A stretch of DNA of 64,000 nucleotides from a bacterium (lineage in GTDB: Bacteria > Patescibacteriota > Minisyncoccia > Phycocordibacterales > UBA9973): the NCBI GenBank assembly GCA_021824345.1, contig JAKAKW010000004.1:11019-75018 (forward strand). Direction: 5' to 3'. The first letter of the stretch is position 1. The number at the start of each line of letters is the position of its first letter. Below the pieces are notes generated by a model. The model saw nothing but the letters and a program-made list of their open reading frames with translations. It ran no database searches and was not told the origin of the DNA. Positions 1,024 to 63,417 of the stretch are shown here, one piece after another. Position numbers and translations under genes: made by a program.

Positions 1024-1038
1024 ATACGTCGCAAGGGA

Positions 1039-1076
1039 GGGCCTTGCTTCCGAAAGGAAGCAAGGCCCTATTTTTA
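1039..1076 (+). terminator. Rho-independent terminator hairpin after dnaB: 13-bp stem GGGCCTTGCTTCC/GGAAGCAAGGCCC, GAAA loop, T-run
   Basis: Perfect inverted repeat followed by ATTTTTAT directly after the dnaB stop. It overlaps the longer upstream-extended recR ORF, which argues that recR starts at the downstream ATG. Confidence 0.7.
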
Positions 1077-1097: not shown

Positions 1098-1775
1098 ATG
1101 GACACCGCGGACAAGCTGGCAGAAATATTCAAGGAGTTTCCGGGAATCGGAGAACGGCAGGCGCGCAGGTTCGTGTATTTCTTGATGGCCAGAAATCCCG
1201 CCTATGTGGAAGGCCTCGCCAAACTGCTTTCCGAACTAAAAAAGGAAACAAGGCGTTGCAAAGAATGCTTCCGCTTCTTTGCAGACAACCCGCGCCGTTC
1301 CCCCGCCGCAAAGAGCGTGGAAATCTGCGAATTGTGCTCCGATCCGAACGCGGACCCGGAGCTTCTAATGGTGGTTGAAAAAGATTCGGACCTTGAAAGC
1401 ATCCGAAAAAGCGGAACTTACGGAGGAAAATATTTCGTGCTGGGCGGGCTGGTGCCCATAGTGGAAAAGGATACTCCGAAATTCGTGCGGATAAAGGAGC
1501 TGAAGGAAAGAATGTCGAGAAAGTGGGAGGCCTTGCCTCCCACGGGTGGGAGGCAAGGCCTCCCACGGGGTAATTCCCTGAAAGAGGTAATCCTGGCCTT
1601 TTCCCTTTCCCCTCAGGGCGATCACACTGATTTTTACATAAGAAACGAGCTGAAGGAATCAGCGGAAAAATTCGGCATAAAAATTTCCTCGCTCGGCCGG
1701 GGGCTCTCCACAGGCACCGAGCTCGAATATTCTGACAATGATACAATAAAGAACGCGCTGAAGAACAGGCAGTAG
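1098..1775 (+). CDS. recR: Recombination protein RecR, carrying an in-frame palindromic-repeat insertion
   Basis: HhH motif 'EFPGIGERQARR', C4 zinc finger 'CKECFRF...CELC', Toprim 'LLMVVEKDSDLESI' and RecR C-terminus '...GTELEYSDNDTIKNAL'. Start chosen at ATG 1098 (MDTADKLAE), downstream of the terminator hairpin. Confidence 0.85.
   Translation: MDTADKLAEIFKEFPGIGERQARRFVYFLMARNPAYVEGLAKLLSELKKETRRCKECFRFFADNPRRSPAAKSVEICELCSDPNADPELLMVVEKDSDLESIRKSGTYGGKYFVLGGLVPIVEKDTPKFVRIKELKERMSRKWEALPPTGGRQGLPRGNSLKEVILAFSLSPQGDHTDFYIRNELKESAEKFGIKISSLGRGLSTGTELEYSDNDTIKNALKNRQ
1523..1566. repeat. Two abutting copies of palindromic hairpin repeat family 1 (GTGGGAGGCCTTGCCTCCCAC and GTGGGAGGCAAGGCCTCCCAC) inside the recR coding frame
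   Basis: Each copy has a 9-bp perfect stem GTGGGAGGC/GCCTCCCAC with a 3-nt loop. The two copies differ only in the loop (CTT versus AAG) and are separated by GG. They translate in frame as 'KWEALPPTGGRQGLPRGNS'. The same hairpin recurs intergenically at 47697-47717. Confidence 0.85.
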
Positions 1776-5903: not shown

Positions 5904-6785
5904 ATGACCCAAGGAATAATAAACACAGAGAATATTGATGAGGCGGACGTTGTGCTCCTGGAAGCCCCGTATGAAAAAACGGCCTCCTCGCACAAAGGCA
6001 CCGCACAGGGACCTGAGAAGGTAACGGAGATGCTGGACACCCAGCTTGAATTTTTCAGCCGGAAATTCAAGACAAATGTCAATGAACATGTGAAGATTGC
6101 CAAAATGAACGCGGGCGACTTGGAAAAGCTTTCTCCCGAAGAAACTCTGGCCGTTGTCAAAAAGGCGTACTCGGAACTTTTAAAAAATGAAAAATTTGTT
6201 TTTCTTCTTGGAGGAGAGCATTCCGTTTCCATCGGCGCTTTTCAATCGCTCGCCGAGAAATACAAGCCTGAAGACGTGACCATACTGCAGATAGACGCGC
6301 ACTGCGATTTGCGCCAGGATGACAGCGATTACAGCGAGAACCCGTCTTCCCTCGCCCATTCCACCGTGATGAGGCATGCGAGCGGACTCGGATTTCCAAT
6401 CGTACAGGCCGGCATCCGCACCTATTCCAAAGAAGAATACGAGTATTTCAGCGATCCGAAAAACAAGGTCGCCGTTTTTGAATGGGAGCTTGAAAGAATT
6501 CCGGTGGAAAAGATATTGGACGCAATTAAAACTAAATATTTATACATTACGGTAGATGTGGACGGGTTTGATCCCGCTTATATGCCCGGCACCGGCACGC
6601 CGGTGCCGGGCGGCCTCGCCTGGTACTACGGCCTTGATTTGCTTGAGAAAGCAGCGGAAAAATGCGAGCTTATCGGCGCTGATATCGTGGAAGTTTCCCC
6701 ACAGCCTGATACCGTGCTCACCGAATACGGCGCAGCCGAACTCTGCTACCGCATCATCGCCGAAAAATTCAGAGACCGCTTTTAA
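5904..6785 (+). CDS. Arginase/agmatinase-family ureohydrolase
   Basis: Mn-binding motifs of the arginase fold: 'GGEHSVS', 'DAHCD', 'DVDGFDPAYMPGTGTPVPGGL'. Confidence 0.8.
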   Translation: MTQGIINTENIDEADVVLLEAPYEKTASSHKGTAQGPEKVTEMLDTQLEFFSRKFKTNVNEHVKIAKMNAGDLEKLSPEETLAVVKKAYSELLKNEKFVFLLGGEHSVSIGAFQSLAEKYKPEDVTILQIDAHCDLRQDDSDYSENPSSLAHSTVMRHASGLGFPIVQAGIRTYSKEEYEYFSDPKNKVAVFEWELERIPVEKILDAIKTKYLYITVDVDGFDPAYMPGTGTPVPGGLAWYYGLDLLEKAAEKCELIGADIVEVSPQPDTVLTEYGAAELCYRIIAEKFRDRF

Positions 6786-7941: not shown

Positions 7942-9393
7942 TTAGATCATAGGCTCGGCTTCCTGGACTGGTTTGACGGCCTCTCCGGGCTTTTTGCCTT
8001 CAATTATGGCCTTTTCCTCGGCGCTGCGTATAATGGTGGCCTCTTCCTCGGCAATAAGCTTGGCAGCATCTTCTTTGGATATGGTGTATTTCCGCCTGGA
8101 AGCTTCCACTATCTCATTCCTATACGACGGATGGGTGGGAGGCAGGACTTTCAGGGATTCCGCGGAGAAAGGGTCGTATGACTCGCCGTCTATGGTCATT
8201 TTTATGAAAAATTCGGTAATGGCCAGGTTGATCATGTCTTTGATGTCGAAGACGGGCGCAAACTCAGGCTTCATTTTTACCGCGTCCTCGCCGCCGATGC
8301 GGAAGGAAATAATGCTCCCGCAATTACCGAGTACGGCGTGATGCACCCGCTCAATGATCTGCCCCACGAATTGGTGGGCGATGGTAAGGCACAGGCCGTA
8401 TTTGCGCGCTTCCGACAGAATGTTTTCAAAAGTCTGGGTCACCACGTTCTGGAACTCGTCCACGTACAGATAGAAATCGGTGCGCTTGTCTTCCGGTATG
8501 CTCGCGCGTTCCATTCCAGCTTGCTTGATTTTGGTCAGGAAAATGGACCCAAGGAATGAAGAGTTTTCTTCGCCCAGCCGGCCTTTGGAAAGATTGATCA
8601 GAATTATTTTCTTTTCTTCCATCAGCTTATGAATATCAATTTTGTTCTGCTTCTGTCCGAAAATATTGCGCAGAAGCGGATCGGAAAGAAATTGTCCGAG
8701 CTTGTTCACCAGCGGGATGATGGCGTCGGTATCGAATTTTTCCGACCAGTCGGCGAATTCAATGGCAAAGAATCTTTTTACCATATCGTCGGTGATATAT
8801 TCCACCACTTTCTGGCGGTAGTTTCGGTCCGTGAGCATGGAAATCATTCCGCGCATGGTGGCATGCGGATAGTCCAGAAGCGCGAGGCAGGTAAAGCGGA
8901 AGACGTGCTCCAAGCGCGGGGTCCAACTGGCTCCGAACTGCTTTTGAAAGACTTCTATCAGTCCCTGGGTCAATTGGAACTTGAACATCGGATCCACGTT
9001 TTGCAGAGGATTAAAGGAAGCAGGGTGTTCAAGATCGGTCGGATCAATAATGCATACGTCTTCCATGCGCTCTTTGGGGATATAGTCCAGCATGGCTTCT
9101 ATGACGTCTCCGTGCGGGTCAATAAGGCACAGGCCGTGGCCATAAGTCACGTCCTGGCGCAAAAGGAGCTCCATGAGCTTGGTCTTCCCAACTCCGGATT
9201 TGCCGATGATATAAAGATGCCGCCTGCGGTCTACTCGCTTGATGCCGAAAATAAATTTCTTCTCTTCAAGCGCGGCCACGTAATTGGTACGCCCTATAAA
9301 GGAAACTTCAGCCGGATCAATCCTGCCAAATACCGGGAGCTCCGGCGGCGGGGGGGCGTATTTGATTATCTGTACTCGATTGCCTCTGGGCAT
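7942..9393 (-). CDS. FtsK/HerA-superfamily P-loop ATPase (DUF87/HerA-like or T4SS coupling-protein-like), copy 1
   Basis: Walker A 'IIGKSGVGKTKL' followed by 'LIDPHGD'; Walker B 'FYLYVDEFQN'; 'LTIAHQ' sensor-like motif. Paralogous over its whole length to 20010-22241. Confidence 0.6.
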   Translation of the reverse strand: MPRGNRVQIIKYAPPPPELPVFGRIDPAEVSFIGRTNYVAALEEKKFIFGIKRVDRRRHLYIIGKSGVGKTKLMELLLRQDVTYGHGLCLIDPHGDVIEAMLDYIPKERMEDVCIIDPTDLEHPASFNPLQNVDPMFKFQLTQGLIEVFQKQFGASWTPRLEHVFRFTCLALLDYPHATMRGMISMLTDRNYRQKVVEYITDDMVKRFFAIEFADWSEKFDTDAIIPLVNKLGQFLSDPLLRNIFGQKQNKIDIHKLMEEKKIILINLSKGRLGEENSSFLGSIFLTKIKQAGMERASIPEDKRTDFYLYVDEFQNVVTQTFENILSEARKYGLCLTIAHQFVGQIIERVHHAVLGNCGSIISFRIGGEDAVKMKPEFAPVFDIKDMINLAITEFFIKMTIDGESYDPFSAESLKVLPPTHPSYRNEIVEASRRKYTISKEDAAKLIAEEEATIIRSAEEKAIIEGKKPGEAVKPVQEAEPMI

Positions 9394-9430: not shown

Positions 9431-9453
9431 GGGCGGAGGGTTACCCTCAGCCC
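9431..9453. repeat. Palindromic hairpin repeat family 2 (GGGCGGAGGGTTACCCTCAGCCC) between array A and ATPase copy 1
   Basis: Inverted repeat GGGCGGAGGG/CCCTC(A)GCCC. Related copies lie at 14765, 33641, 44638 and 54594/54625. Confidence 0.7.
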
Positions 9454-12981: not shown

Positions 12982-14730
12982 TTAATACACCTCCTTGTTG
13001 TAACAATCCTCGCAGTATACGGTTTCGGGGCGGTCGGGGGCGAATGCGGTATCAAATTCGTTCAAACATTTGCCAGCGTGGCTGTGGACGGCTTTCTGGC
13101 ACATGCAAGAACGGTGCCAGAGCTTCATGGGATTGCGTTTGGCAAGGCGCGCTTCGTGCCGGCAGAAGAAGCATAGATGCGGGAGCGGAACACCGAGTTT
13201 TTTATACAGCTTCAGTTCCCCGTCGGTTATCTTGAATGCCCCGCGGCAACGCCCGCCGGAATTATTCCGATTCGCGCATCCTATTACTTCGGAAAGAATC
13301 GAATCCCGCACATCGCCCAATCTGTCCGGCAGATCTTTCGCCTCAATGGTGAGGGAATACTCGTTCTGCTTTTTGTCCCGCCACCTGTACCCCCTCGAGA
13401 GAGCCTCCTCCTTGGTCAAAGGAAAATAATCCTGGGCCTGGGTTTCGTTATAACAGAATGGAGAAAGTTCCGCCGGGAAGAATTCGCCGTACTTGTATGT
13501 CAAACCATTCCTGTCCACATAAGGCATATTCATCATATGCTCTTTGATTTTTGGAACCAACGCTTCATACTCCTCCTTTGAATATTCCTTGTTTAAAATG
13601 CAATGCTTCTTATTCCTTATTCCAATACAGCCGAATAAATCGGAACAGCCGTGGCAATTGAACGAATATTCCACGTTATTTGAGCTGTACACCACGCTGG
13701 TGAATAAGTTGCGGTAATTTCCAATGCCGGTATCAAATGCTTCATACGCCAGCTCTGCGTCCCCCAGACCCGGTCCAATATCGTAGCCGTCTTTTACCAC
13801 ATGGGCCACCCAATGCGCGAACTTGCAGTCTTCTATGTTGCCATTTCCGTCAAAAATAATATGGCAATTTTTTACCCCGTCCAAATTATCTCCGGTGGAA
13901 TTTATACTCCTAATCTGGTTTGCAAATCTATTGACGGCTCCGAGTACAAGCTTGTCAAATTTTTCTTTTAATTTTGAAATTTCGGCATAGCTTGTGAGAT
14001 CGATTTCAGACAAGCGCTTAGTGTATTCTTCCTTGCTTAATGGTTCATTCCACATGCAATATGATTTGTTGCGCTGGTTTGTACAGCCCAAACAATTGGT
14101 ACAGCCATGGCAATCGTAAAGAAAATATGAATCCACGCAGGCCTTGCATTTCATGGAATACATAAGGCGATAGCAGTCTTCGCAAAACATATCCTCGTAA
14201 CAGAGTTCTGATTTGTGAGTCACATAAGTGTCTGAGCAGTCTTTGGTCTCGGAGATGCGATTGGAATAGAAAGTACGCTCAATTTTCCATGACCCGGAAG
14301 ACATGTAGCTTTCTCTTGAATCCTCCGCCACATTGCAGTAATCGCTGTTTACGGCATGGATGTTAGAAAGAGCCTGTTGGGGAAAATCCCTATATAACTC
14401 GCTCCATTGCTGAAAAAATGGTTTTGAAAAATCATAGTCCCGCCCGTAAGAAAGTTGGTCCCAATTGTCGCTCCACCAATAACTTGAATCATATGTTTTC
14501 AGCTTTTCATCCGGCGGATACATGCTGATTATGTCCTCGTCGTGCCCCGGCGCGTCACATTTGCGCCTGAAAAGAGACATTTCGTTGCGCCAGCTTATGC
14601 GTCGAACAGTACGGCAATCGGGGCAAAAAGTCGGCGGGGGCACGCCGATTTTCTTGTAGAAATTAAAATCCTCCGGCTCAATAGCGAAGCTCTGCTTGCA
14701 ATTCTGGCATTGCCGGGTTTCGGATTGCAT
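12982..14730 (-). CDS. Cysteine-rich multi-zinc-ribbon family protein, array A copy 3
   Basis: 582 aa with 'MQSETRQCQNCKQSFAIEPEDFNFYKKIGVPPPTFCPDCR'. Its C-terminus is nucleotide-identical over about 115 bp to copy 1. Confidence 0.85.
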   Translation of the reverse strand: MQSETRQCQNCKQSFAIEPEDFNFYKKIGVPPPTFCPDCRTVRRISWRNEMSLFRRKCDAPGHDEDIISMYPPDEKLKTYDSSYWWSDNWDQLSYGRDYDFSKPFFQQWSELYRDFPQQALSNIHAVNSDYCNVAEDSRESYMSSGSWKIERTFYSNRISETKDCSDTYVTHKSELCYEDMFCEDCYRLMYSMKCKACVDSYFLYDCHGCTNCLGCTNQRNKSYCMWNEPLSKEEYTKRLSEIDLTSYAEISKLKEKFDKLVLGAVNRFANQIRSINSTGDNLDGVKNCHIIFDGNGNIEDCKFAHWVAHVVKDGYDIGPGLGDAELAYEAFDTGIGNYRNLFTSVVYSSNNVEYSFNCHGCSDLFGCIGIRNKKHCILNKEYSKEEYEALVPKIKEHMMNMPYVDRNGLTYKYGEFFPAELSPFCYNETQAQDYFPLTKEEALSRGYRWRDKKQNEYSLTIEAKDLPDRLGDVRDSILSEVIGCANRNNSGGRCRGAFKITDGELKLYKKLGVPLPHLCFFCRHEARLAKRNPMKLWHRSCMCQKAVHSHAGKCLNEFDTAFAPDRPETVYCEDCYNKEVY

Positions 14731-14736
14731 ATATAA

Positions 14737-14745
14737 ACTTTACCA
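14737..14745 (-). promoter_or_regulatory. Extended -10 box TGGTAAAGT, 6 nt upstream of the copy-3 ATG (internal, leaderless-type promoter)
   Basis: The minus strand reads GGGCGGAGGGATACCCTCCGCCC-TAGAATTTTTACGCAAACG-TGGTAAAGT-TTATAT-ATG. The same cassette repeats upstream of array B at 33613-33663. Confidence 0.45.
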
Positions 14746-14764
14746 CGTTTGCGTAAAAATTCTA

Positions 14765-14787
14765 GGGCGGAGGGTATCCCTCCGCCC
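14765..14787. repeat. Palindromic hairpin repeat family 2 (GGGCGGAGGGTATCCCTCCGCCC) in the only sizeable intergenic gap of array A; on the minus strand it is followed by a T5 run (terminator-like)
   Basis: Perfect 10-bp stem. On the transcribed (minus) strand it is followed by TAGAATTTTTACG. Confidence 0.7.
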
Positions 14788-14834
14788 TCCCTCGGCCCTT
14801 CTCCGCCTTGGCTTCCAAATTAAAACCATTGCCG

Positions 14835-16577
14835 CTAATATACTTCTTTCTGATAGCAAGATTCGCAATACACTGTCTCCGGTTTATCGGGCGCATAGCT
14901 GGTTTCAAATTCATTTGGGCATTTGTCTCGGTGTCCGTGATTGGATTTTTCGCACATGCAAGAACGGCTCCAAAGCTTCATGGGATTGCGCTTGGCAAGC
15001 CTGCCGTAATGCCGGCAATTTGAACACAGGCGCGGAAGAGGCAAGCCGAGTCTGCGGTAAAATCCCAGCTCGTCCGGAATAATGCGAAACGCTTCGGTGC
15101 ACTGTTCGTTACATTTTCCTTTGTGCGCGCACTCAACAGACTTGTTTAATATATCGTCTTTTACATCGCTTATATCGTCCGGCAATTCCTCATTTTTTAT
15201 TTCAATTTCGTAGTTTTTCGATTCTTTTTCTTTCCATCCGTATCCCCTTTCCCGCGCCTCCTCTTGAGTCAAAGGGAAGTATTCTTGGGCAATGGTTTCG
15301 TTATATGCCCAGGGAGAAATTTCCATCGGGAAAAAATCGCCGTAGACATAAGCCCTGCCTTTCGCGTCAATATACGGCTTTTCCGCCATTTGCTTCACGA
15401 TTTCATCCTTTAGTTTGTTGTACTCCTCTTTTGTATATTGCTTGTTTAATATGCAGTATTCTTTTCCGCGCAATCCTATGCAACCGAACAAGTTCGAAGA
15501 TGCCTGACAAGAAAAACAATACGCGCAATTGTTGGAACTATAGGTGGTAATGATGGCAAGATCGTTCATTCCCACGTCGGTATCCACTCCTTCGTAGCAC
15601 AGCTCGGTTTTGTAATTGCCGTAAACGTCATAATTTTCCTTGATAAAAAGCGAATGAGCGGAAAATCGGCAATTTTCCGCCTCGTCTGATATATCAAAGC
15701 AATTATGGGAATTTTTGGATTTGGTAATGTTATGTCCCGTGCAATTCTCGCATTTTACGATGTTGGCATAGCGGCGAATGGCTTTTCCGCGTATTTCACT
15801 TTCATATTTTTCTCTTATTTTTTCTCTGTTTGCATAGCTGGATAGTTTCAAAGATTTTAGTTTGTTTTCATAATCATCTTTAGTCAGCTGTTCATTGAAA
15901 TAACAATATGACTTGCTGACCAGATTAGAACAGGCAAAGCAGTTATTGCAATTTCGGCATCCGTATAGATACGAAGAATTCACGCAAGAGGTGCAGCTTT
16001 CGCTCCCCATCACGCTGAAACATTCTTGGCAATCCAGAATATCGTAGCAGAGTTCATTGTGAGGAGAAGTAAGCATATCTTGAGAATCTTTTGAAAAATT
16101 GCTTCGGTTCGAATACCGTACGTTTTCGTCATATCCGCACCCGAACACGAGATAGCAATTCTTGTTACCGTCCACATAATTCGTGTATTGAGAGTTCACG
16201 GAATTGATGGTTTGGAGGGCCGGCAAGGGCGTTTTCTTCCACAACTTGTCATATTGCTCAAAGAAAGGTCTGGACGGGTCATATTCAATGCCGTAATCAG
16301 TCGGATCCCATTTGTCGCTCCACCAGTACTCCTTATCATACACAGTGTAGGGAGAATCCGGCGCGTACATGCTTAGCATCTCCTCGCTTCTGCCGGGCGC
16401 ATTGTTTTTTCTTTTATACAGCGACCGTTCATTCCGGAAAGCCATCCTCCTGACAATTCTGCATTCCGGACACCACGTCGGCGCCGGCACCTTTATGCGC
16501 TCGTAAAACCCGAAATCATCCGGCTCTATGACGAAGTCCTTTTTGCAATTTTGACATTGCCAGGTTTCGGATTGCAT
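14835..16577 (-). CDS. Cysteine-rich multi-zinc-ribbon family protein, array A copy 4
   Basis: 580 aa: 'MQSETWQCQNCKKDFVIEPDDFGFYERIKVPAPTWCPECR', 'CRNCNNCFACSNLVSKSYCYFNEQLTKDDY', 'CAYCFSCQASSNLFGCIGLRGKEYCILNKQYTKEEY', C-terminal '...YCESCYQKEVY'. Confidence 0.85.
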   Translation of the reverse strand: MQSETWQCQNCKKDFVIEPDDFGFYERIKVPAPTWCPECRIVRRMAFRNERSLYKRKNNAPGRSEEMLSMYAPDSPYTVYDKEYWWSDKWDPTDYGIEYDPSRPFFEQYDKLWKKTPLPALQTINSVNSQYTNYVDGNKNCYLVFGCGYDENVRYSNRSNFSKDSQDMLTSPHNELCYDILDCQECFSVMGSESCTSCVNSSYLYGCRNCNNCFACSNLVSKSYCYFNEQLTKDDYENKLKSLKLSSYANREKIREKYESEIRGKAIRRYANIVKCENCTGHNITKSKNSHNCFDISDEAENCRFSAHSLFIKENYDVYGNYKTELCYEGVDTDVGMNDLAIITTYSSNNCAYCFSCQASSNLFGCIGLRGKEYCILNKQYTKEEYNKLKDEIVKQMAEKPYIDAKGRAYVYGDFFPMEISPWAYNETIAQEYFPLTQEEARERGYGWKEKESKNYEIEIKNEELPDDISDVKDDILNKSVECAHKGKCNEQCTEAFRIIPDELGFYRRLGLPLPRLCSNCRHYGRLAKRNPMKLWSRSCMCEKSNHGHRDKCPNEFETSYAPDKPETVYCESCYQKEVY

Positions 16578-20009: not shown

Positions 20010-22241
20010 TCAAGAATCGAGCATTTTCCTTAATATGTCTTCCGGCACCTCTTTCACCTTTTTGGAATACGGCGGAACGGGAATCTCATTTTTTCCCGAA
20101 GTAGAGATTGTTTCGATATCGTTTTCCGGAGTTGATTCCGATCCGGGATCACTCTGTATCGGTTCATCTTTCTGTTCCGGTTGCGGTTCCTGTTCCGGCT
20201 CTGATTCTGGTTCTGGTTCTGGTTCCGACATATCAGGTTCCGCCGGAGAAACCGGTTCCAAAACATCCTTGGCGGGTTCCTCCTCTTTTTTCTCCGGCAT
20301 TGCTTCAAAAATCAAATCTTTAAGCTTATTCATATCTTCTGCGCTGGCTGCCCGATCTTCTTTTTTAGGCTTTTCAGCTTCAGCGGAATGCTTTTCCTCT
20401 TTAAGAGATTCAAGTGAAATTGGTTCCGGCCCAGGATCCTTTGGGCGCTCTTCGCTTTGAATTTTTTCTTCTTTTGGAACAGGTGGAATATTGTCATTCA
20501 AGGTCTTGTTCAGTATTTCTCTCAAAGCAGAGGTATCTCTTTCTTTTTTTGCCGGCGGTTCCTCCTTCTTTTGCTGAAACTTTTTTCCGTTCTGGTTTTT
20601 CTTAAAAACCGCCTTAAGCGAAGAAAAGCCGTTTGTTTTTTTGCCATTGTTCGGCACAGAGCTCGGCTCTTCCTTGAATTCTATTCCCAAATCCGCCAGA
20701 GGCTTGAAAAACCTTCCTTCATCTCGGCCGGAGCCGGTATTGGAGGAGCCGGACAAGGGCTTCAATTCCCCCGCTTTTATTTTGGCAATGCAATCCCGGC
20801 AATATATGGGCCTGCCGGGCTCGGGTCTGAAAGGCACCTTGGTCGGCTGTCCGCATATCGAGCACACCGCGTCAAACTTCTCCACTCCGGTAGTGGAACC
20901 GGAAGAGCTTGCGTCATCTTCTCCAAGAGACATTCCGCTCCAGTCATTTATCTCCTTTTCAACCGTATCGCGAGGACGGCAGTACAGTTCCCTGGACTTT
21001 CTTATGACCTCCGCTTCCGCTTCCGGATTTTCGCCTATTTTCACCATGGGCGGAAGCGTCCGGGCAGAAAACGGGCGGGAGGTGACTCCGTCTATCATCA
21101 GCTTGATGTATATCTTGTAGTTCGGGAGATTCACTATGTCCTCGGGGGTGAATTCCGGTTCAAATTCTTTTTCCAGAAATTCAGCGTCGTCCGCTCCCAC
21201 TCGAAACACGATCATGGTGCCGATGTTGCCGAAAATGGCGTCCCGAACCGAAGAGCTTTCCTTGGTGACAAGCTGGGCGGTGTATTGGTGCGCCACGGTA
21301 AGGTTTAAGCGATATTTTCGCGCTTCGGAAAGAATGCCGGCGAAGGCATCGGTAACGAAGTTTTGAAATTCGTCTACGTACAAATAAAAGTCCTTGCGTT
21401 CTTCCTCGGGTATGCGCACCCGTTCCATGGCGGCCAGCTGGATTTTGGTAATGATCATTCCGCCGAGAAGCGCGGAGTTGTCTTCGCCTATGCGACCCTT
21501 GGAAACGTTCACCAGGAAAATTTTCCCTTGGTTCATTAAGTCAAAAATATTGATGGTGCTCTTGGACTGCCCCACGATATTGCGGATGATAGAGGTGGAA
21601 AGAAATTGGCCGACTTTGTTTTGAATGGGAGCAATGGCTTCATTGCGGAACTTATCCTGCCACTCTTCGTACTCGTGCACCCAGAAAGCCTTAATGACCG
21701 GATCTTTCAGGTTGCTGATGATTTTTTGCCGATAGTCTTTGTCCACCAGCATCCTGGGAATGCCGAGCATGGTTGTGCCGGGAGTATCAAGAAGCGCGAG
21801 AATTGCATTGTTCAAAATGTATTCCATTCGGGCGCTCCAGGCGTTGGCCCAAATTTTTGTGAAAATGCCCATGAGGCCGGATGCCACCAGGTGCTTGTAT
21901 TTCGGATCAGGCAATTCCAAAACATTGAATCCGATGTGATACTCGGTGTCCGCCGGGTTGAAATACACCACATCTTTCAAGCGATGCTGGGGAATGGCGG
22001 AAAGCACCGCTTCCACGTTTTCCCCGTGCGGGTCCACCAAGCAGACGCCGTCGCCGTTCTTGATGTTCTGAATGATCATGTTGAACATGAGCACCGATTT
22101 ACCGGTGCCGGACTTTCCGAGAATATACACGTGCTGGCGCCTATCCTTCCGCTTTATGCCGAAGAGCTTGTTTTGGTCGCGAAAAGTGGTTTGGCCCAGG
22201 TATGTTAAATCCTTGTTATATGGGAGTTCCGTAGCGTCCAT
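20010..22241 (-). CDS. FtsK/HerA-superfamily P-loop ATPase, copy 2, with a C-terminal zinc-ribbon and acidic low-complexity extension
   Basis: Walker A 'ILGKSGTGKSVL' then 'LVDPHGEN'; Walker B 'FYLYVDEFQNF'. The roughly 330-aa C-terminal tail carries 'CSICGQPTKVPFRPEPGRPIYCRDCIAKI' and a 'PEPEPESEPEQEPQPEQ' stretch. Its stop lies 4 nt from the start of array copy 6. Confidence 0.6.
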   Translation of the reverse strand: MDATELPYNKDLTYLGQTTFRDQNKLFGIKRKDRRQHVYILGKSGTGKSVLMFNMIIQNIKNGDGVCLVDPHGENVEAVLSAIPQHRLKDVVYFNPADTEYHIGFNVLELPDPKYKHLVASGLMGIFTKIWANAWSARMEYILNNAILALLDTPGTTMLGIPRMLVDKDYRQKIISNLKDPVIKAFWVHEYEEWQDKFRNEAIAPIQNKVGQFLSTSIIRNIVGQSKSTINIFDLMNQGKIFLVNVSKGRIGEDNSALLGGMIITKIQLAAMERVRIPEEERKDFYLYVDEFQNFVTDAFAGILSEARKYRLNLTVAHQYTAQLVTKESSSVRDAIFGNIGTMIVFRVGADDAEFLEKEFEPEFTPEDIVNLPNYKIYIKLMIDGVTSRPFSARTLPPMVKIGENPEAEAEVIRKSRELYCRPRDTVEKEINDWSGMSLGEDDASSSGSTTGVEKFDAVCSICGQPTKVPFRPEPGRPIYCRDCIAKIKAGELKPLSGSSNTGSGRDEGRFFKPLADLGIEFKEEPSSVPNNGKKTNGFSSLKAVFKKNQNGKKFQQKKEEPPAKKERDTSALREILNKTLNDNIPPVPKEEKIQSEERPKDPGPEPISLESLKEEKHSAEAEKPKKEDRAASAEDMNKLKDLIFEAMPEKKEEEPAKDVLEPVSPAEPDMSEPEPEPESEPEQEPQPEQKDEPIQSDPGSESTPENDIETISTSGKNEIPVPPYSKKVKEVPEDILRKMLDS

Positions 22242-31950: not shown

Positions 31951-33606
31951 CTAATTTATATTCTGCTTGTAACACTCCTCGCAGGCAATGTTTTTGTATC
32001 CCCATTCGGGCGGGTAATATGCCATGATATCTTTCCGGCAGTAATGGCATTTATACGGAAAAGGGTGCAGAACGGTCAGGTATTTGAGCGCATTCCTGGT
32101 CCGCAGATCAAAATGCAGGCGCGGCAGAGGGATATTATTCTCTCTATGAAAAGAAAGTTCATTTTGGGCGATATTGAAACGCCAGCCGGTCTCCGGGCAG
32201 ACGAGCGGTTGGGTAATGATTGAATCTGGCGCGTCCTTGATATTGTCCGGCAATTCGCCGGCGGGCATGCCTTCCGCTTTTTCTGTGTTCGGATCTTCCC
32301 AATACCCGCCCAAAGCCAAGACATCTTCTTTTTTTGCTTCCGGAAAATACAATATGCTTGTGGAAAGGTTGAAAGGACCGGCGCTCATTGAATAGGGCAA
32401 GAATTGCCCGTATTCTCCCCGCTTTTTCATGTCAGACACTATTTCCATCCGGAGTTTTTCATATTCTTCTTTCTCATACTGTTTGTTCAGAATGCAATAT
32501 TTTTTCTTCTTCAGTCCTACGCAACCAAAACAATATTCGCATTCTATGCACAAGTCCAGATACTCGGAATACCTGGAGGATGACCAGTTGCTGTATTTCT
32601 GCGCATAAGCGTTAACGCAGCTGGCGCAATTGCCCAAGAGCTCGGAATACCAGCAACCATTCGCGTCAATGTCGGACTTGTGCCGAAGCCCGCGATTGCA
32701 GTTCCAAGAATCCTCAGAGTCGCTTATCGTGTTGCAATTATGGCAATTCTTCGTATCCATCAAGTAGTTTCCGTCGGAATCATATACCCTATAATTGAAA
32801 TTGGGCCGGTGCACCGCTTTGTCCTTGGCAATATTTTCAAATTTTTCCTTCAGCTTCTGTGCGGCGGAATACGAACCGAGATCGTATGATTCGAGTTTGG
32901 CCTCGTACTCTTCCTTGGAATATTGCACATTCTCTATGCAGTGCGTTTTTCCCCGAAGGTTCCAGCACATGAAGCAACTTTGGCAATTACGGCAATCGTA
33001 CAAAAAAGACGAATCAATGCAGTCTCGGCAGTGCCGAGAATAGAAAAGGCGGAAAGAATTGTAGCAGTCGCTCGAATCGTAGCATTTCTCCGAATCAAAC
33101 AGCACATGCACGTCTATGGAATTCCTGACCCGCAGGTTTCGATATGAATAATAAAGTTCTTCGCAATTTTCCATGGAGCGGGCCAGGTAACAGTTCTTTG
33201 AATTCCACACGTCGTCGCACCAGTCGCAATTCGTATTCTTGATCCCGTTCTGGTGCGGATGCGGCACTTTTTCCTGAAGTTCCTTAAGCTGATCAAAAAA
33301 AGGGCGGACGGGATCGTAATCCTGCCCGAATTCCATCGGATCCCATTTATCGCTGTACCATTCGGAAGTCTTGTAGATCGGGTACCGGCTATTTTCCGGC
33401 ATGACCGTGATCAGGCTTTCGCCGGACAAATCCGATTTCCCTTTTCGAAACCGGCCGAAGAGCCAGAACGAGAAATGTTGCTTCAGCCTGCAGTCGGAGC
33501 AAATGACCGGAATCTCAGTGCCGGTTTTTTCGTATAAAGCAAGTTCTCCAGGCTCTATGCTGAACTTTGACTTACAGTGCTCGCACGTGCGAGCTTCACT
33601 TTGCAT
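31951..33606 (-). CDS. Cysteine-rich multi-zinc-ribbon family protein, array B copy 5 (first gene of array B, divergent member)
   Basis: 551 aa: 'MQSEARTCEHCKSKFSIEPGELALYEKTGTEIPVICSDCR', 'CRNCQSCFMCWNLRGKTHCIENVQYSKEEY', 'CFGCVGLKKKKYCILNKQYEKEEY', C-terminal 'YKCHYCRKDIMAYYPPEWGYKNIACEECYKQNIN'. Confidence 0.8.
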   Translation of the reverse strand: MQSEARTCEHCKSKFSIEPGELALYEKTGTEIPVICSDCRLKQHFSFWLFGRFRKGKSDLSGESLITVMPENSRYPIYKTSEWYSDKWDPMEFGQDYDPVRPFFDQLKELQEKVPHPHQNGIKNTNCDWCDDVWNSKNCYLARSMENCEELYYSYRNLRVRNSIDVHVLFDSEKCYDSSDCYNSFRLFYSRHCRDCIDSSFLYDCRNCQSCFMCWNLRGKTHCIENVQYSKEEYEAKLESYDLGSYSAAQKLKEKFENIAKDKAVHRPNFNYRVYDSDGNYLMDTKNCHNCNTISDSEDSWNCNRGLRHKSDIDANGCWYSELLGNCASCVNAYAQKYSNWSSSRYSEYLDLCIECEYCFGCVGLKKKKYCILNKQYEKEEYEKLRMEIVSDMKKRGEYGQFLPYSMSAGPFNLSTSILYFPEAKKEDVLALGGYWEDPNTEKAEGMPAGELPDNIKDAPDSIITQPLVCPETGWRFNIAQNELSFHRENNIPLPRLHFDLRTRNALKYLTVLHPFPYKCHYCRKDIMAYYPPEWGYKNIACEECYKQNIN

Positions 33607-33612
33607 ACAATA

Positions 33613-33621
33613 ACTTTACCA
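33613..33621 (-). promoter_or_regulatory. Extended -10 box TGGTAAAGT, 6 nt upstream of the first array-B gene (leaderless-type promoter)
   Basis: The minus strand reads ...GGGCGGAGGGTACCCCTCCGCCC-TATATTTTTTACGCAAGTG-TGGTAAAGT-TATTGT-ATG, nearly identical to the cassette at 14737-14787. Confidence 0.45.
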
Positions 33622-33640
33622 CACTTGCGTAAAAAATATA

Positions 33641-33663
33641 GGGCGGAGGGGTACCCTCCGCCC
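33641..33663. repeat. Palindromic hairpin repeat family 2 (GGGCGGAGGGGTACCCTCCGCCC) between grpE and array B, followed by a partial extra half-copy
   Basis: 10-bp stem; on the minus strand it is followed by a T6 run, making it a plausible grpE terminator. Confidence 0.7.
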
Positions 33664-33683
33664 TACCTTCCGCCCTACAGGTT

Positions 33684-44637: not shown

Positions 44638-44661
44638 GCGGAGGGGCACCCTCCGCTTTTT
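44638..44661. terminator. Family-2-type hairpin GCGGAGGG-GCA-CCCTCCGC with a T5 run, between mnmA and the exonuclease gene
   Basis: 8-bp perfect stem followed by TTTTT, with an A/G-rich stretch on the other side. Confidence 0.55.
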
Positions 44662-47623: not shown

Positions 47624-47691
47624 GCTTGTATTTTAATATATATGGCCGATAAAGAAAAGCGCAAACGGAAAAAGCTCTAAAATATGGGAGT

Positions 47692-47722
47692 AAAAAGTGG
47701 GAGGCAAGGCCTCCCACTTTTT
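47692..47722. repeat. Palindromic hairpin repeat family 1 (GTGGGAGGCAAGGCCTCCCAC) flanked by an A5 run and a T5 run: bidirectional terminator between the convergent 3' ends of the preceding and following features (the 46196-47623 membrane protein and the 47767-48807 HTH gene)
   Basis: The same 21-mer appears in inverted form twice within recR (1523-1566). Confidence 0.7.
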
Positions 47723-47766
47723 ACTCTCGCTTGCCTCCCGCTTTTGAACCAAGCGCTTTTGAGTAT

Positions 47767-53689: not shown

Positions 53690-54466
53690 TTATATGTTTT
53701 GTATCGAATTAAGGACGCTATTCACCGCCGAAAGAGGAACAAATCCGGCCCCGGGAAAAGCAAAACCGATAACTTCCCCGTTTAAATCCAAGACTATCGA
53801 ATCCCCGAAGCTTCCCGCTTGTCCGAAACCGTCGGCGCCCATATCCAGGCTGGGGCTTCCGTTATATATGAAAGAAGAAATATTATCCCCCAAAAGCACT
53901 ATTTTTTGTCCGGCTTTCAAGCTGCTCAAATCAGCTTGTTTCATCTTTGGAAAAGAAAGCTTGTCCGTTCCATTTACCGGCGCCCCTATTTTCAAAAGAG
54001 AAAATTTGTTCTGGCCGCTGGGAATGAAACTTGCCGTAAATTTTCCGCTCTGGTTTTCCACGAAATATGTTCCGTCACTGGGCACCTCTGAAGCGTTTGC
54101 CGCTATTATTCCCTTGTCCGACACTGCGAATCCGTCTCCGAGTCTCGTTTCAATAATTTTTCCGTCAGCGCCGGACGTTCCCATGCTGATGGAAAACATT
54201 TCCGGCTTGTTGTCCGCCACGGCGCTTACCACCAAGTCTTCCTCCTTTACCACTACGGTATTGACCACCGGCTTCCCGTCCTGCGGCACTATTTTGTCCA
54301 CCGTCTCTCTCACTACCCGGTTTATGGGAACCGTAACCGACTGCGGGGCCTGCTGCATCAGAGTGACGGTGGTAATACCCGTGGCCAGCGAGGTCACAAA
54401 CGACAGAAGAAGCGCCAGGAGTATCAGCTGGGATCTGCTTAAATCTTTTATGTCCATTGGGGTCAA
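53690..54466 (-). CDS. Membrane-anchored trypsin-like (HtrA/S1C-like) domain protein, possibly catalytically degenerate
   Basis: N-terminal TM. 'GFAVSDKGIIAANASEV' and 'GSFGDSIVLDLNGEVIGFAF' resemble HtrA 'GSGF...TNAHV' and 'GNSGGPL.N..GEVIGIN', but the GNSGG serine box reads GSFGDS. The opposite-strand ORF 53673-54512 was rejected. Confidence 0.45.
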   Translation of the reverse strand: MTPMDIKDLSRSQLILLALLLSFVTSLATGITTVTLMQQAPQSVTVPINRVVRETVDKIVPQDGKPVVNTVVVKEEDLVVSAVADNKPEMFSISMGTSGADGKIIETRLGDGFAVSDKGIIAANASEVPSDGTYFVENQSGKFTASFIPSGQNKFSLLKIGAPVNGTDKLSFPKMKQADLSSLKAGQKIVLLGDNISSFIYNGSPSLDMGADGFGQAGSFGDSIVLDLNGEVIGFAFPGAGFVPLSAVNSVLNSIQNI

Positions 54467-55665
54467 TTATACCACTTTTTCAGTTTTTTCAAAACTTCTG
54501 AAACCGCTTTAAAGGCATAATCAACTTCTCCTTTTTTTACTCCGGGTCCGAAGGAAAAACGCAGGGATCCCATATTGGCCGCACCGGCAGTATGAGCGGA
54601 GGGTAACCCTCCGCCTCTTTTAACGAGCGGAGGGTTACCCTCCGCTTTGCGTATCGCCCGGATCACGTGCGACGCTTTTTTATCGCCCGATTTGCAAGCG
54701 CTCTTCTCCGAAACCATTACTCCGCGTTCGGATAGCTCTATCACCATAAGATCGCTCGGCATATTCGGAAAAGTGACATTTAAATTGTTCGGCAATCTGT
54801 TTTCAATGCTTCCGTTCACTATTACGTCCTTTCCGAGAATATCTTTCGCGGATTTGGCGATTCCGCGCAGAAAATAATCGCGAAGGCCTGCGATCCGCTT
54901 CGCCTCTTTTTTCGATCTGCCTCGCGCGGACTCAAGAGCCTTCGCAAACTTTGATATTTCAAAAAGGTTCTCCGTTCCCGGACGCAAGCCGTGCTCTTGC
55001 CCGCCCCCGCCAAAAACCGGAGAAAGAGGCGTTGATTTTCTCTTAAAAAGAACTCCAATTCGCCCGGCTCCGGAAATCTTTGCTCCGGAAACGGTCATCA
55101 TGTCCACGCCGAGGCGTTCCACATTCAAATCCAAATAGTTTGCAGCCTGCACTGCATCCGTATGAAAATACGGAAGAAGGCTTTTTTCACGCTTGCGCCA
55201 ATGCCTTATTTCCTTGGCGATTTCCCGGATAGGCTCCACTGTGCCTATTTCATTGTTTGCATACATGACTGAGACGAGAACGGTGTTTTTTTTGATCGCT
55301 TTCTTCACTTTTTTCGGATCTATCCTTCCATCCGCCTCCGCCGGAACGACTGAAACCTCCGCTAACTTTCTTTTCTTCAACATATCGGCGGTCTCAAGCA
55401 CGGAAGGATGCTCAATATTCGTGGTAACGATATGCGGCATCTTTTTGGAAAAAGCCAATACTGCCCCCTGTACCGCCAGATTATTGCTTTCGGTTCCTCC
55501 GCTCGTGAATATTATTTCTTCCTCCCTCGCCCCCAAAATACCCGCCGTAATTTTCCTGGCTTTCTTCAGTTTCTTCTTCGCTTCACTGCCGGCCTCATGA
55601 ATGGAACTCGGATTCGGTTCGGCGGAGGAAGCGTAATCCATATATATTTTCCTTGATTTGGGCAT
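54463..55665 (-). CDS. Cysteine desulfurase (IscS/NifS-like class V aminotransferase) carrying an in-frame double palindromic-repeat insertion
   Basis: 'IYMDYASSAEPNP', 'FTSGGTESNNLAV', 'SGAKISGAGRIG' (PLP-Lys region) and C-terminal '...LRFSFG'. Start chosen at MPKSRKIY (the listed ORF extends to 55707). Confidence 0.85.
   Translation of the reverse strand: MPKSRKIYMDYASSAEPNPSSIHEAGSEAKKKLKKARKITAGILGAREEEIIFTSGGTESNNLAVQGAVLAFSKKMPHIVTTNIEHPSVLETADMLKKRKLAEVSVVPAEADGRIDPKKVKKAIKKNTVLVSVMYANNEIGTVEPIREIAKEIRHWRKREKSLLPYFHTDAVQAANYLDLNVERLGVDMMTVSGAKISGAGRIGVLFKRKSTPLSPVFGGGGQEHGLRPGTENLFEISKFAKALESARGRSKKEAKRIAGLRDYFLRGIAKSAKDILGKDVIVNGSIENRLPNNLNVTFPNMPSDLMVIELSERGVMVSEKSACKSGDKKASHVIRAIRKAEGNPPLVKRGGGLPSAHTAGAANMGSLRFSFGPGVKKGEVDYAFKAVSEVLKKLKKWYN
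54594..54645. repeat. Two direct copies (31-bp period) of hairpin repeat family 2 (GAGCGGAGGGTAACCCTCCGC and GAGCGGAGGGTTACCCTCCGC) inside the cysteine desulfurase reading frame
   Basis: On the coding strand they translate in frame as 'AEGNPPLVKRGGGLPSAH', lying between the conserved 'SHVIRA' and 'SLRFSFG' segments, where canonical IscS/NifS has only a short loop. Confidence 0.85.
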
Positions 55666-60263: not shown

Positions 60264-60338
60264 GAAAAACGTAGAATGTAAAAAGAAAAACCATCTTATG
60301 AAAGATGGTTTTTCTTTCATAAGATGGTTTTATTGATT

Positions 60339-60923: not shown

Positions 60924-61362
60924 AACATTTTTCCTTTCCGATGTTCAACATCGAATTTCTGTATCTGAATTGGTACAGGCCTGGAAATGTTCTTCATTGC
61001 CAGGCATAAAGCACAGATGCCTTATGTCTGGCAATGAATTATATTGTCAAGTTGCTTATTGTTAATACAATACAATTTTTAATGATTAGTCAATAGCTTG
61101 ACTTATTTATATTTTATGTTATACTACCTATTAAATTAAGCTCACTGACAAAAGTTATTTTTCAGTTTGTTTATTTGCGACATAAGGCGAGAGAAATATA
61201 TAAGCTTGCTTATATATTTCCTAGCCGAGGAACGAATATAGTTTCCGCAGCAATGCGCAAATCTAAAATTTTGTTGTCTGTGATTTGCTGCGGGAACTAT
61301 ATTATAGCGCCCGAAAAGTTTAAATAAAAAACTAAAATAATAACAAATAAAAGGAACGCAAA

Positions 61363-62968: not shown

Positions 62969-63051
62969 AAAGGAAAAATTAAACGCAAGAGGGAAATTTT
63001 GCTAAAGCAAAATTTCCCTCTTTTTTATTTCCGTACTTTTTCCCGAACCTT

Positions 63052-63405: not shown

Positions 63406-63417
63406 GTATAAAGTCTT

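Follow-up and report, generated by a model that had tools for sequence, protein, structure and literature searches.

The recR gene of the Patescibacterium analysed here carries a 44-nt segment that is an in-frame insertion of two inverted, perfect, GC-rich 21-nt hairpins into a loop of the RecR protein. On the overall evidence, the segment is quite probably a translated and tolerated REP/REPIN-like terminator-hairpin repeat residing in a disordered loop. The features identified in the window, that is, the whole 64-kb stretch of DNA that was analysed, are listed in Table 1. The hairpins in recR belong to a family (family 1) with the consensus GTGGGAGGC-NNN-GCCTCCCAC, the 21-nt unit of which consists of a 9-bp stem and a 3-nt loop. 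The presence of two inverted copies in the Toprim domain, as proposed in the initial annotation, was confirmed; the copies are exact reverse complements of each other and are separated by GG. A third copy (47697-47717) is intergenic and identical to copy 2. The pattern was thus found three times, versus 0.02 expected from 100 shuffles of the window. No further copy was found in 9 kb more of the same genome, giving a density of three copies per ~73 kb for all the sequence of this genome surveyed.

Table 1. Hairpin elements, their host genes and associated features in the window
Feature	Position	Strand	Remarks
recR CDS	1098..1775	+	225 aa from ATG 1098; alternative 243 aa from upstream TTG 1044; assigned by Pfam, homologs and AF2
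Inserted coding segment (approximate, 48 nt)	1524..1571	+	RecR residues W143-G158; bounds inferred from ortholog loop lengths
Family-1 hairpin, copy 1	1523..1543	+	GTGGGAGGC-CTT-GCCTCCCAC, full GTGGGAGGCCTTGCCTCCCAC; codes W E A L P P T
Family-1 hairpin, copy 2	1546..1566	+	GTGGGAGGC-AAG-GCCTCCCAC, full GTGGGAGGCAAGGCCTCCCAC; other codon phase, G G R Q G L P
Composite 44-nt palindrome (REPIN-like doublet)	1523..1566	+	20-bp stem, 4-nt loop CGGG; strongest local fold of the window
Intergenic family-1 copy	47688..47726 (core 47697-47717)	-	A5/T5 lengthen stem to 18 bp; terminator-like
Terminator-like hairpin	1038..1069	+	AGGGCCTTGCTTCC-GAAA-GGAAGCAAGGCCCT; between dnaB and recR
Cysteine desulfurase (class V aminotransferase) CDS	54463..55665	-	Hosts family-2 doublet; PDB matches IscS/NifS
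Family-2 hairpin	54596..54614	-	GCGGAGGG-TAA-CCCTCCGC; within cysteine desulfurase CDS
Family-2 hairpin	54626..54646	-	AGCGGAGGG-TTA-CCCTCCGCT; within cysteine desulfurase CDS; inverted relative to the 54596-54614 copy, 12-nt spacer
Family-2 intergenic copy	14764..14788	-	AGGGCGGAGGG-TAT-CCCTCCGCCCT; T-run next on minus strand; after gene 14835-16577(-)
Family-2 intergenic copy	33639..33665	-	TAGGGCGGAGGG-GTA-CCCTCCGCCCTA; directly past grpE (33684-34289, minus strand)
Family-2 intergenic copy	44638..44656		GCGGAGGG-GCA-CCCTCCGC; RNase T-like gene on one side, mnmA-like gene on the other
Family-2 intergenic copy, one mismatch	9433..9451		GCGGAGGGTTACCCTCAGC; between genes

The host ORF contains the Pfam domains RecR_HhH, Toprim_4 and RecR_C, its product has 6386 homologs that are named RecR or toprim proteins in Patescibacteria, and its predicted fold resembles the solved RecR structures 3vdp and 1vdd (E about 1e-17). 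In the alignment with 3vdp, a gap of 17 residues falls exactly at SRKWEALPPTGGRQGLP, ahead of 'RDGSVKEVILA', and an ortholog with 70% identity (L195) lacks the segment, reading ...KERAKDPGLGEIILAF. The in-frame insertion relative to canonical RecR claimed in the initial annotation is therefore well founded. The loop comprises 38 aa in the window RecR versus 21-24 aa in 56 basal orthologs; across 144 diverse RecRs, the span L135-E163 is mostly 12-16 aa long, compared with 29 aa here. All conserved RecR residues are intact despite the insert. An AF2 model based on a diverse alignment (mean pLDDT 89, pTM 0.84), which was used in preference to one based on 120 close homologs (mean pLDDT 57), places residues 141-160 in a coil (pLDDT 55-64) between a helix (132-144) and a strand (163-167). 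The insert is thus predicted to form approximately 16 Pro/Gly-rich residues of a disordered surface loop in the Toprim domain.

The same RecR protein is encoded on 12 contigs, and the two that were compared as DNA (L201 and L202) match the window at 100% identity. The identity of the DNA in independent assemblies indicates that the hairpin pair is not an assembly artefact. No presence/absence polymorphism was found in this comparison, which was limited to contigs encoding exactly this RecR. The 90%-identity cluster of RecR contains no insert-free variant, its sole other member being this protein begun at the TTG further upstream. L192, the closest ortholog whose insert differs, has only an eroded inverted repeat (7/9), which is unconvincing alone.

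The RNA of positions 1495-1595 is predicted to fold with -54.3 kcal/mol (z = -6.1), the centroid fold of the recR palindrome has -46.3 kcal/mol, and this palindrome is the most stable among the 50-nt local folds of the whole window. The intergenic copy, which had been described as a terminator-like member of a dispersed repeat, proved to be the top-ranked terminator-like site within 40-58 kb. It lies 41 nt past the stop codon of a minus-strand gene (47767-48807) encoding Sigma70_r4 and HARE-HTH domains, and it is the only family-1 copy with the features of an intrinsic terminator (GC-rich hairpin, U-run and location 3' of a gene). On the sense strand, no T-run follows the recR copies, which therefore are not sense-strand terminators. 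The sequences flanking the three copies are AGAAA/GG, GG/GGGG and AAAAA/TTTTT. No stop codon is present in any of the six frames of the element, and 21 nt correspond to 7 codons; therefore, the element is readable in any phase. The same 9-bp stem is repeated at least 15 times in another Paceibacterota MAG (JBAYJV01), as part of a larger conserved palindrome and, for essentially all copies, outside genes. The hairpin between dnaB and recR contains GCAAGGCC, as do family 1 and the 'SEARP' hairpins in recR of relatives. Scanning of the window with Rfam and for tRNAs yielded six tRNAs only, with no match at the hairpins, and the 21-mer was found in viral contigs as five unrelated singletons, which are uninformative. 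A DNA uptake sequence, suggested by inverted terminator pairs and enrichment in repair genes as in Neisseria, was rejected, because the 9-mer occurs only seven times in 64 kb and nearly always inside hairpins.

The phenomenon is much wider than was initially described: the window contains another hairpin family and another host gene, and a recR hot spot is present across Paceibacteria. Family 2 (GCGGAGGG-NNN-CCCTCCGC) has six copies in the window versus 0.02 expected, with the flanking motifs CTAG, ATAG, GAAG, ATGA or ACGA. Four of these six copies, and one of the three family-1 copies, are extragenic and 3' of genes. The remaining two form a doublet (54596-54646) that is in frame in a cysteine desulfurase gene and equivalent to the recR pair; it is the second most stable local fold of the window (-43.1 kcal/mol). 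The inserted sequence is RKAEGNPPLVKRGGGLPSAHTAGA, preceded by SHVIRAI and followed by GSLRFSFG, and the PDB alignment of the protein ends at the insert. Most cysteine desulfurase orthologs lack the segment and others have similar doublets there, including perfect doublet palindromes of 22 bp (L200) and 21 bp (L198) in the same loop.

Comparison of 80 Paceibacteria RecR orthologs revealed strong and usually perfect hairpins (folds of -10 kcal/mol or better) in 21 of the 24 with an enlarged loop (at least 26 aa), versus none of the 56 with a basal loop. The recR loop of the window has a fold of -51.2, and the mean MFE per nt is -0.32 for the 25 enlarged loops (24 orthologs and the window) versus -0.037 for the 56 basal loops. 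The reading frame is open through the inserts in all 80 orthologs. A survey of 857 kb located 25 perfect GC-rich hairpins within ORFs, 13 of them in recR. The hairpins in the recR loop represent several sequence families, which are also found in intergenic regions, and many unique sequences. Related intergenic hairpins are present on the same contigs (L126 at 8430 and 9950; L130 at 11231), and one hairpin arm is common to recR of L123 and L127 and an intergenic site of L126. The recR loop is a hot spot that has taken unrelated hairpin sequences in different lineages; the NJ tree of RecR (202 columns) has a resolution too poor for counting independent insertions. The two-inverted-hairpin architecture recurs in orthologs of recR and cysteine desulfurase in other Paceibacteria, and aminopeptidases of the M17 and M1 types and a PBP linker of Saccharibacteria provided more in-frame cases. 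An A-run as the universal insertion target fits recR and the cysteine desulfurase gene of the window and fails for L198, L200 and L130.

Intragenic REP dimers and the Rickettsia palindromic elements (RPEs) are the closest known kinds of element. The REPs and REP dimers carrying GTAG or CGTC tags form hairpins 20-40 nt long whose stems measure 5-13 bp, and most are found close past the 3' ends of genes (Di Nocera et al. 2013, PMC3733652). They are often paired in opposite orientation and fold into a larger structure; a minority lie wholly within ORFs, more than half of these being dimers that encode 20-30 aa, and many are in DNA replication or repair genes (PMC3733652). The statement in the initial annotation that such insertions are otherwise rare was thus too strong. 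Families 1 and 2 share with REPs the short (20-40 nt) repeated palindromic stem-loop, and the recR hot spot is paralleled by two Xanthomonas species that have different REPs at about the same recB site (PMC3733652). The elements described here differ from REPs in the lack of an unpaired GTAG/CGTC tag, the perfect stems, the low copy density and the lack of any REP-associated tyrosine transposase (RAYT) in the DNA sampled. Furthermore, the host, a Patescibacterium with a reduced genome, belongs to a phylum outside those for which REPs are reported, and many distinct hairpin sequences share one loop of one gene across a class.

RPEs are palindromic repeats found in frame in unrelated housekeeping genes of a reduced genome, and their extra peptides are thought to be fold-compatible (PMC10969869). 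The earlier designation of the recR insert as RPE-like holds for its behaviour, as it is in frame in a housekeeping ORF at a fold-compatible position. It does not hold for its kind: RPEs are ~100-150 bp in length and encode family-specific conserved peptides, whereas the unit found here is 21 nt (44 nt as a doublet) rather than ~150 bp, encodes a phase-dependent peptide, has no sequence relation to RPEs and comes closer to single and paired REPs. RPE-4 and RPE-6, the smallest of the RPEs, are the only ones to have been equated with REPs (PMC3733652).

A further likeness is to REPINs in that an inverted doublet of short palindromes, here the recR pair, the family-2 doublet and those of L200 and L198, forms one long hairpin and in that the families are genome-specific. 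REPINs are reportedly REP doublets that form hairpins and are mobilised by RAYTs, the genes of which usually have REPs on their flanks; they are extragenic and number hundreds per genome, and REPs occur in tens to thousands of copies per genome. The present elements differ in that no RAYT was detected, by a weak test with approximate queries. They also differ from MITEs, which have terminal inverted repeats and target-site duplications and are 70-300 bp in length, since the recR element is at most 44 nt and has no flanking direct repeats. The mobile GC clusters and 'byp' elements of yeast mitochondria are likewise short GC-rich palindromes found between and inside protein-coding genes of an AT-richer compact genome. 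They are, however, organellar, and byp elements are skipped by the ribosome, whereas the recR insert keeps the frame and read-through is expected. Hairpins generated by template switching (Mönttinen & Löytynoja 2022, PMC8794818; Saccharomyces CDS, PMC8604942) acquire perfect stems in one step, undergo paired arm changes and have inverted spacers, and a related genome shows one unambiguous case of such an event (L144, below), but this literature concerns local events in rRNA, miRNA and yeast genes and not dispersed families common to terminators and protein loops.

With regard to origin, we tentatively prefer replication template switching, a choice to which we assign somewhat less than an even chance. 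The element would be a REP/REPIN-like by-product of the terminator-hairpin repertoire of the genome, tolerated but not required at the protein level. A hairpin may have been seeded beside A-rich Lys codons by ectopic or fold-back copying, and template switching could also duplicate it in inverted orientation, flip its loops and keep its arms perfectly complementary. Documented outcomes of template switching include the origin and upkeep of perfect hairpins and the inversion of spacers (PMC8794818, PMC8604942), and the exact reverse complementarity of copies 1 and 2 is what fold-back copying predicts. In the 'SEARP' hairpins, all 119 of 119 stem positions are paired, and four pairs have changed on both sides. 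In the agmatinase gene of L144, a different gene in a different genome from the window recR, the place of the conserved 'SPQxD' codons is taken by a sequence exactly reverse-complementary to the 13 nt immediately before it, and the length is unchanged. Ectopic template switching across 46 kb with a common flank of only ~3 nt (AAA) is speculative. As a putative effect, the 20-bp RNA stem probably slows or destabilises the recR message.

The initial annotation regarded the repeat as mobile, which was not borne out, as no terminal tag or target-site duplication was found, nor any transposase in the DNA sampled; a transposase-free origin by template switching is at least as likely as mobility. An unlikely source, but the foremost of the rivals, is a non-autonomous transposon resembling REPINs, which a transposase acting in trans (RAYT/IS200-IS605-type or another) would move in the form of single-stranded hairpin DNA and of which the recR copy would be tolerated. 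The size, palindromy, inverted doublets, sites 3' of genes and occasional intragenic copies fit REPs and REP dimers (PMC3733652), and the exact family-1 copies 46 kb apart, the extragenic copies of the same core in JBAYJV01 and the sharing of a hairpin arm between L123/L127 recR and intergenic L126 also favour such a transposon. However, the stems lack a flanking GTAG or CGTC tag, many recR hairpins have sequences of their own and do not belong to a single conserved family, and the copy density is low. Direct repeats flanking the inserts were not found at the boundaries set by insert-free ortholog sequences. The best tblastn match to a Y1/RAYT-like transposase in 1.07 Mb of Paceibacteria DNA had an E-value of 0.49, which is weak evidence against a transposon, given that this DNA is a small fraction of each genome and that the IS200 TnpA and E. 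coli RAYT queries are approximate.

The recurrence of hairpins at one loop, with stems that stay perfect through divergence, could instead reflect selection for hairpin function. The hairpin would then be kept for a DNA or RNA role, which we consider quite unlikely; it might serve in RNase III-type cleavage or in RNA stability, pause translation between the RecR domains or terminate antisense transcription, a U-rich tract being next to it on the antisense strand. Such a role would account for the different hairpins at the same recR loop in many lineages, for the changes on both sides of stems and for the match of intragenic copies to the intergenic family of each genome. The stems, at 17-22 bp, are of a size seen in double-stranded RNA substrates, and antisense T-runs directly follow many inserts, which abut Lys codons. 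This adjacency is, however, automatic, given the Lys-rich helix just upstream, and arm homogenisation by template switching gives perfect stems without selection (PMC8794818). Moreover, 56 of the 80 orthologs have no hairpin, close relatives differ in its presence, and both its sequence and its position within the loop are variable.

Two other explanations carry little weight. A GC-rich hairpin within a coding sequence resembles bypass elements in size, and the segment might be left untranslated through translational hopping, as in T4 gene 60 or mitochondrial 'byp', or through RNA processing. This is very improbable: the recR insert is a multiple of 3 without a stop codon or frameshift, no stop codon follows a take-off site, and a single frame is open through the inserts in 80 of 80 orthologs, so that bypass was rejected. 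A palindrome due to chance or to the encoded amino acids, of which the window holds one real example, is negligibly probable and is refuted by the copy count relative to shuffles, by the 3vdp gap in an insert that orthologs lack and whose peptide is not conserved, by two copies identical as DNA in different codon phases and by the identical non-coding copy. That example, the hairpin at 6584-6611, had been considered as a third insertion and encodes the conserved agmatinase motif PGTGTPVPGG.

In summary, the outcomes named in the initial annotation as refuting were not observed: the extra segment is missing from relatives free of the repeat, and further copies of the repeat are present outside recR. 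These results extend a known but uncommon mode of protein-loop growth to Patescibacteria, for which no prior report of such intragenic hairpin insertions was found in the literature. The genomes of Patescibacteria are tiny and are generally regarded as containing few repeats and little mobile DNA; short hairpin repeats are shown here to change the length of core proteins in frame on recurrent occasions, RecR being a reproducible hot spot. They account for many of the lineage-specific Pro/Gly/Ala/Ser-rich inserts in CPR protein alignments, and we caution that such inserts reflect DNA structure and not protein function. The system also offers a testable case of palindrome entry into coding sequences without a visible transposase, of the upkeep of perfect stems and of loop growth in reduced genomes. 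It is possible, if doubtful, that Paceibacteria (Patescibacteria/CPR) have a lineage-wide, still active and transposase-independent process that copies perfect GC-rich hairpins, drawn from the terminators of each genome, into a few permissive protein loops and keeps the arms perfectly paired as lineages diverge. If true, this would represent template-switch-driven growth of protein loops in minimal genomes, or selected intragenic hairpins with a role at the RNA or DNA level. The permissive loops observed so far are the Toprim loop and the zinc-finger loop of RecR, the C-terminal loop of cysteine desulfurase and the linkers of aminopeptidases.

The RecR-encoding ORF contains the Pfam domains RecR_HhH, Toprim_4 and RecR_C, and thousands of homologs named RecR or toprim are found in Patescibacteria, Paceibacterota and Nomurabacteria. 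The initial annotation had reported two abutting, inverted copies of a 21-nt hairpin (family 1) in this gene and a third, intergenic copy flanked by A and T runs, and all of these were confirmed. Each 21-mer consists of a perfect 9-bp stem and a 3-nt loop. The two recR copies are exact reverse complements of each other, so that together they also form a 20-bp stem closed by a 4-nt loop. The third copy is identical to the second recR copy, and its pairing runs on through A5/T5 to 18 bp (47688-47726). The pattern was observed three times in the window versus 0.02 expected. RNA folding of 1495-1595 yielded -54.3 kcal/mol (z = -6.1), and in a 50-nt sliding fold no other structure of the whole window is as stable as the recR palindrome (-46.3 kcal/mol). 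Its region is identical in both independent assemblies retrieved as DNA. As read off the sequence, the 21-mer contains no stop codon in any frame of either orientation. In addition, an extra half site resembling the 3' arm (CTTGCCTCCCGC) is present at 47729-47741, 12 nt after the intergenic hairpin, and a Kaiserbacteria copy has a third GCCTCCCAC 5 nt past the hairpin (L052:3960-3968); these could be alternative pairing or relics of slippage.

The proposal that the recR pair is an in-frame insertion relative to canonical RecR was also borne out, and we regard the finding as real and the original interpretation as essentially right. The HMMER alignment to the solved RecR 3vdp contains a 17-residue gap precisely at SRKWEALPPTGGRQGLP, ahead of the canonical 'RDGSVKEVILA', and an ortholog with 70% identity (L195) has KERAKDPGLGEIILAF at this position, without the insert. 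Compared with the basal loop of 21-24 residues in 56 orthologs, the insert comprises approximately 16 residues (W143-G158, ~1524-1571). The span L135-E163 contains 29 residues, the third longest among 144 diverse RecR representatives, most of which have 12-16 in the equivalent span. An AlphaFold model built on the alignment of these representatives (pLDDT 89, pTM 0.84 overall) matches RecR crystal structures and places residues 141-160 in a coil (pLDDT 55-64) between helix 132-144 and strand 163-167. The codon phase differs between the two DNA copies, which are read as WEALPPT and GGRQGLP. The frame and fold of the host protein are kept despite the inserts.

Locations of hairpins and associated features in the window and in the contigs or orthologous loci used for comparison (L-numbers)
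Feature	Location	Sequence or remark
RecR ORF	1098-1775	
Family-1 pair in recR	1523-1566 (1523-1543, 1546-1566)	GTGGGAGGCCTTGCCTCCCAC-GG-GTGGGAGGCAAGGCCTCCCAC
Third family-1 copy	47697-47717	
recR loop hairpin	seven loci	AGCGAGGCAAGACCTAA-NNNN-TTAGGTCTTGCCTCGCT; peptide SEARPxxLGLAS
recR loop hairpin		ACTCCCCGAAGA-ccg-TCTTCGGGGAGT
recR loop hairpin		CCCCAAAGC-aag-GCTTTGGGG
recR loop hairpin		TTGCCCAAAG-caaga-CTTTGGGCAA
recR loop hairpin		TTTCCGCC...GGCGGGAAA; AKGGxASGGK
recR loop element, imperfect		CCCGCCTCG...CGAGGCGGG; KPASTRGDSSTRGG
RecR zinc-finger loop cases	window 1284-1328; L141:672-694; L114:6928-6947; L177; L156	
Family-2 intergenic copies (n=4)	9433, 14767, 33643, 44638	
Cysteine desulfurase gene	54463-55665 (-)	hosts two family-2 copies
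Cysteine desulfurase doublet	L200	CTGCGGAGGCAATGCCTCCGCT-agta-AGCGGAGGCATTGCCTCCGCAG
Cysteine desulfurase doublet	L198	21-bp palindrome
~40-nt element in cysteine desulfurase orthologs	L196:10508-10582, L197:3226-3303, L198:10481-10558, L200:356-427	
Family-1-stem copies in JBAYJV01	L005, L011, L026, L033, L043, L063, L074, L079, L087, L099	
VirD4/TraG-like coupling-protein genes	7942-9393; 20010-22241	TrwB_AAD_bind, TraG-D_C
Long AT-rich perfect hairpins, unlike families 1 and 2	60282-60317, 60991-61040, 62987-63022	

DNA of 80 recR orthologs from metagenomes revealed that this loop is a hot spot across Paceibacteria, holding several unrelated hairpin sequences. The 56 basal-loop orthologs have no GC-rich hairpin at the loop (mean MFE per nt, -0.037), while 21 of the 24 with loops of at least 26 residues reach a folding energy of -10 kcal/mol or lower; for the window loop, the value is -51.2 kcal/mol. 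Over these 24 and the window, MFE per nt averages -0.32, and most stems are perfect. A survey of 857 kb counted 55 perfect hairpins (stem ≥9 bp): 30 are located in intergenic DNA, which represents 7% of the total, and 25 in ORFs, of which recR holds 13. The SEARP arm also occurs outside genes, at 8430 in L126, where it matches the recR arms of L123 and L127 exactly; a related hairpin is located directly upstream of recR in L126, at 9950. Hairpin carriers are scattered among non-carriers on the weakly resolved RecR tree, which implies that hairpins were repeatedly gained, repeatedly and precisely lost, or both. At the hairpin edges, L131 and L134 contain a 15-nt sequence (GAAAGTGAGGCAAGA) twice in tandem and L142 a 9-nt one (GCCTCGCTG), suggesting slippage around the hairpins. 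The RecR zinc-finger loop, between the two CxxC pairs, also varies (8-9 aa basal, up to 24 aa), and several long versions encode hairpins, such as CCTCCCCCTT-aat-AAGGGGGAGG; it is a second, weaker hot spot, and the 15-aa loop of the window contains only a weak inverted repeat.

A census of the window identified 24 perfect GC-rich hairpins (stem ≥8 bp) versus 2.05 in shuffles. Six belong to a second family, GCGGAGGG-NNN-CCCTCCGC (0.02 expected). The longer intergenic copies are followed by T-runs and located after minus-strand genes. The two copies in the cysteine desulfurase gene have inverted loops (TAA/TTA), are 12 nt apart and constitute the second most stable local fold of the window, encoding RKAEGNPPLVKRGGGLPSAHTAGA between SHVIRAI and GSLRFSFG. 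Most orthologs have only ~8 residues at this position, and some others bear doublets of their own in the same loop; thus, each genome's intragenic doublet resembles the hairpin family of that genome. These hairpins form dispersed families with members at terminator positions and members as in-frame doublets. The perfect 12-bp hairpin at 6584-6611, in an agmatinase-family gene, served as a negative control: it results from the conserved PGTGTPVPGG motif that it encodes and was rejected as an insertion. The two family-2 terminator hairpins of greatest length lie in segments (14644-14792 and 33520-33668) that are 70% similar over 149 nt, including ~110 nt of extra flank (TTGCATA..ACTTTACCAC..TTGCGTAAAAA), and may thus have spread as part of a larger unit of terminator and flank, or together with the paralog array described below. 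A distinct ~40-nt element, GGTCTGGC(G/T)GGGGTAGGGG(A/G)CCC..GAACCGAGGACC, is inserted in frame and in either orientation in cysteine desulfurase orthologs, at three separate loops, encoding GLAGVGxPxNRGP or RSSVPxxPxPARP; it behaves like an RPE (Rickettsia palindromic element), falls short of a perfect hairpin and does not occur in the window.

Further in-frame hairpins were found in the M17 aminopeptidase of two genomes and in an interdomain linker of an M1 aminopeptidase; another, located in a PBP linker of Saccharibacteria, has the core of family 1. With one genome per species, the family-1 pattern occurs mostly as singletons in unrelated bacteria among the matches listed. The AT-rich Paceibacterota MAG JBAYJV01 contains at least 15 copies of the family-1 stem, essentially all extragenic and all within (g)aCATAT-GTGGGAGGC-TSA-GCCTCCCAC-ATATgtc; four share one ~45-nt sequence directly after. 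In this genome, the stem acts as a classical REP (repetitive extragenic palindrome).

The doublets are exact inverted duplications with loops inverted between copies, and both features have been reported to result when the template is switched between inverted repeats (PMC8794818, PMC8604942). In an agmatinase-family gene (L144:15211-15240), the conserved SP(Q/M/L)xD codons have been replaced by a perfect reverse complement of the 13 nt directly before them (CGGATATCGTGGA agtc TCCACGATATCCG), giving STISG at unchanged length, a textbook template-switch mutation. In the seven SEARP hairpins, 119 of 119 stem positions are paired, and four pairs are altered on both sides. On these grounds we tentatively favour a route in which a terminator hairpin would be ectopically copied into an A-rich, Lys-coding stretch, fold-back copying would produce the inverted doublet, and later switching would keep the arms perfect. 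Only events in permissive loops would survive selection, which would generate the hot spots. Spreading by a trans-acting transposase is less likely: the dispersed copies have no GTAG or CGTC tag at their flanks (families 1 and 2 in the window), no target-site duplication is present at the ortholog-defined junctions, where the insert replaces 3-4 ancestral codons, and tblastn with IS200 TnpA and RAYT queries, a weak test, detected nothing resembling Y1 or RAYT in the 1.07 Mb of Paceibacteria DNA sampled, covering part of each genome. Selection for a function of the hairpin at the RNA or DNA level is slightly less probable still.

The closest described phenomenon is that of intragenic REPs. Di Nocera et al. 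reported REP singlets and dimers inside ORFs, encoding 20-30 residues, many of them in replication and repair genes, and two Xanthomonas species have different REPs near the same recB site (PMC3733652). The present elements lack the GTAG/CGTC tag that defines REP families. The initial designation 'RPE-like' holds for behaviour, which RPEs share, but not for length, RPEs being ~150 bp. Therefore, the elements work like REP dimers without being members of those families. The recR case alone is a variant of the already known intragenic palindromes. Full-text searches on Patescibacteria, CPR or Parcubacteria found no published account of comparable elements, and the wider pattern, with several hairpin families, a recR hot spot throughout one class of CPR bacteria and doublets matching the terminators of their own genome, appears to be undescribed. 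This multi-family, multi-genome pattern is of greater interest than the single recR case.

The window also contains a tandem array of ~11 diverged paralogs (9400-33500, minus strand; each ~1.7 kb, 564-611 aa) without a Pfam match; dnaK and a VirD4/TraG-like gene break up the array. One of the two VirD4/TraG-like genes encodes a treble-clef zinc finger. In the last 4 kb (60000-64000), the GC content falls to 39%.
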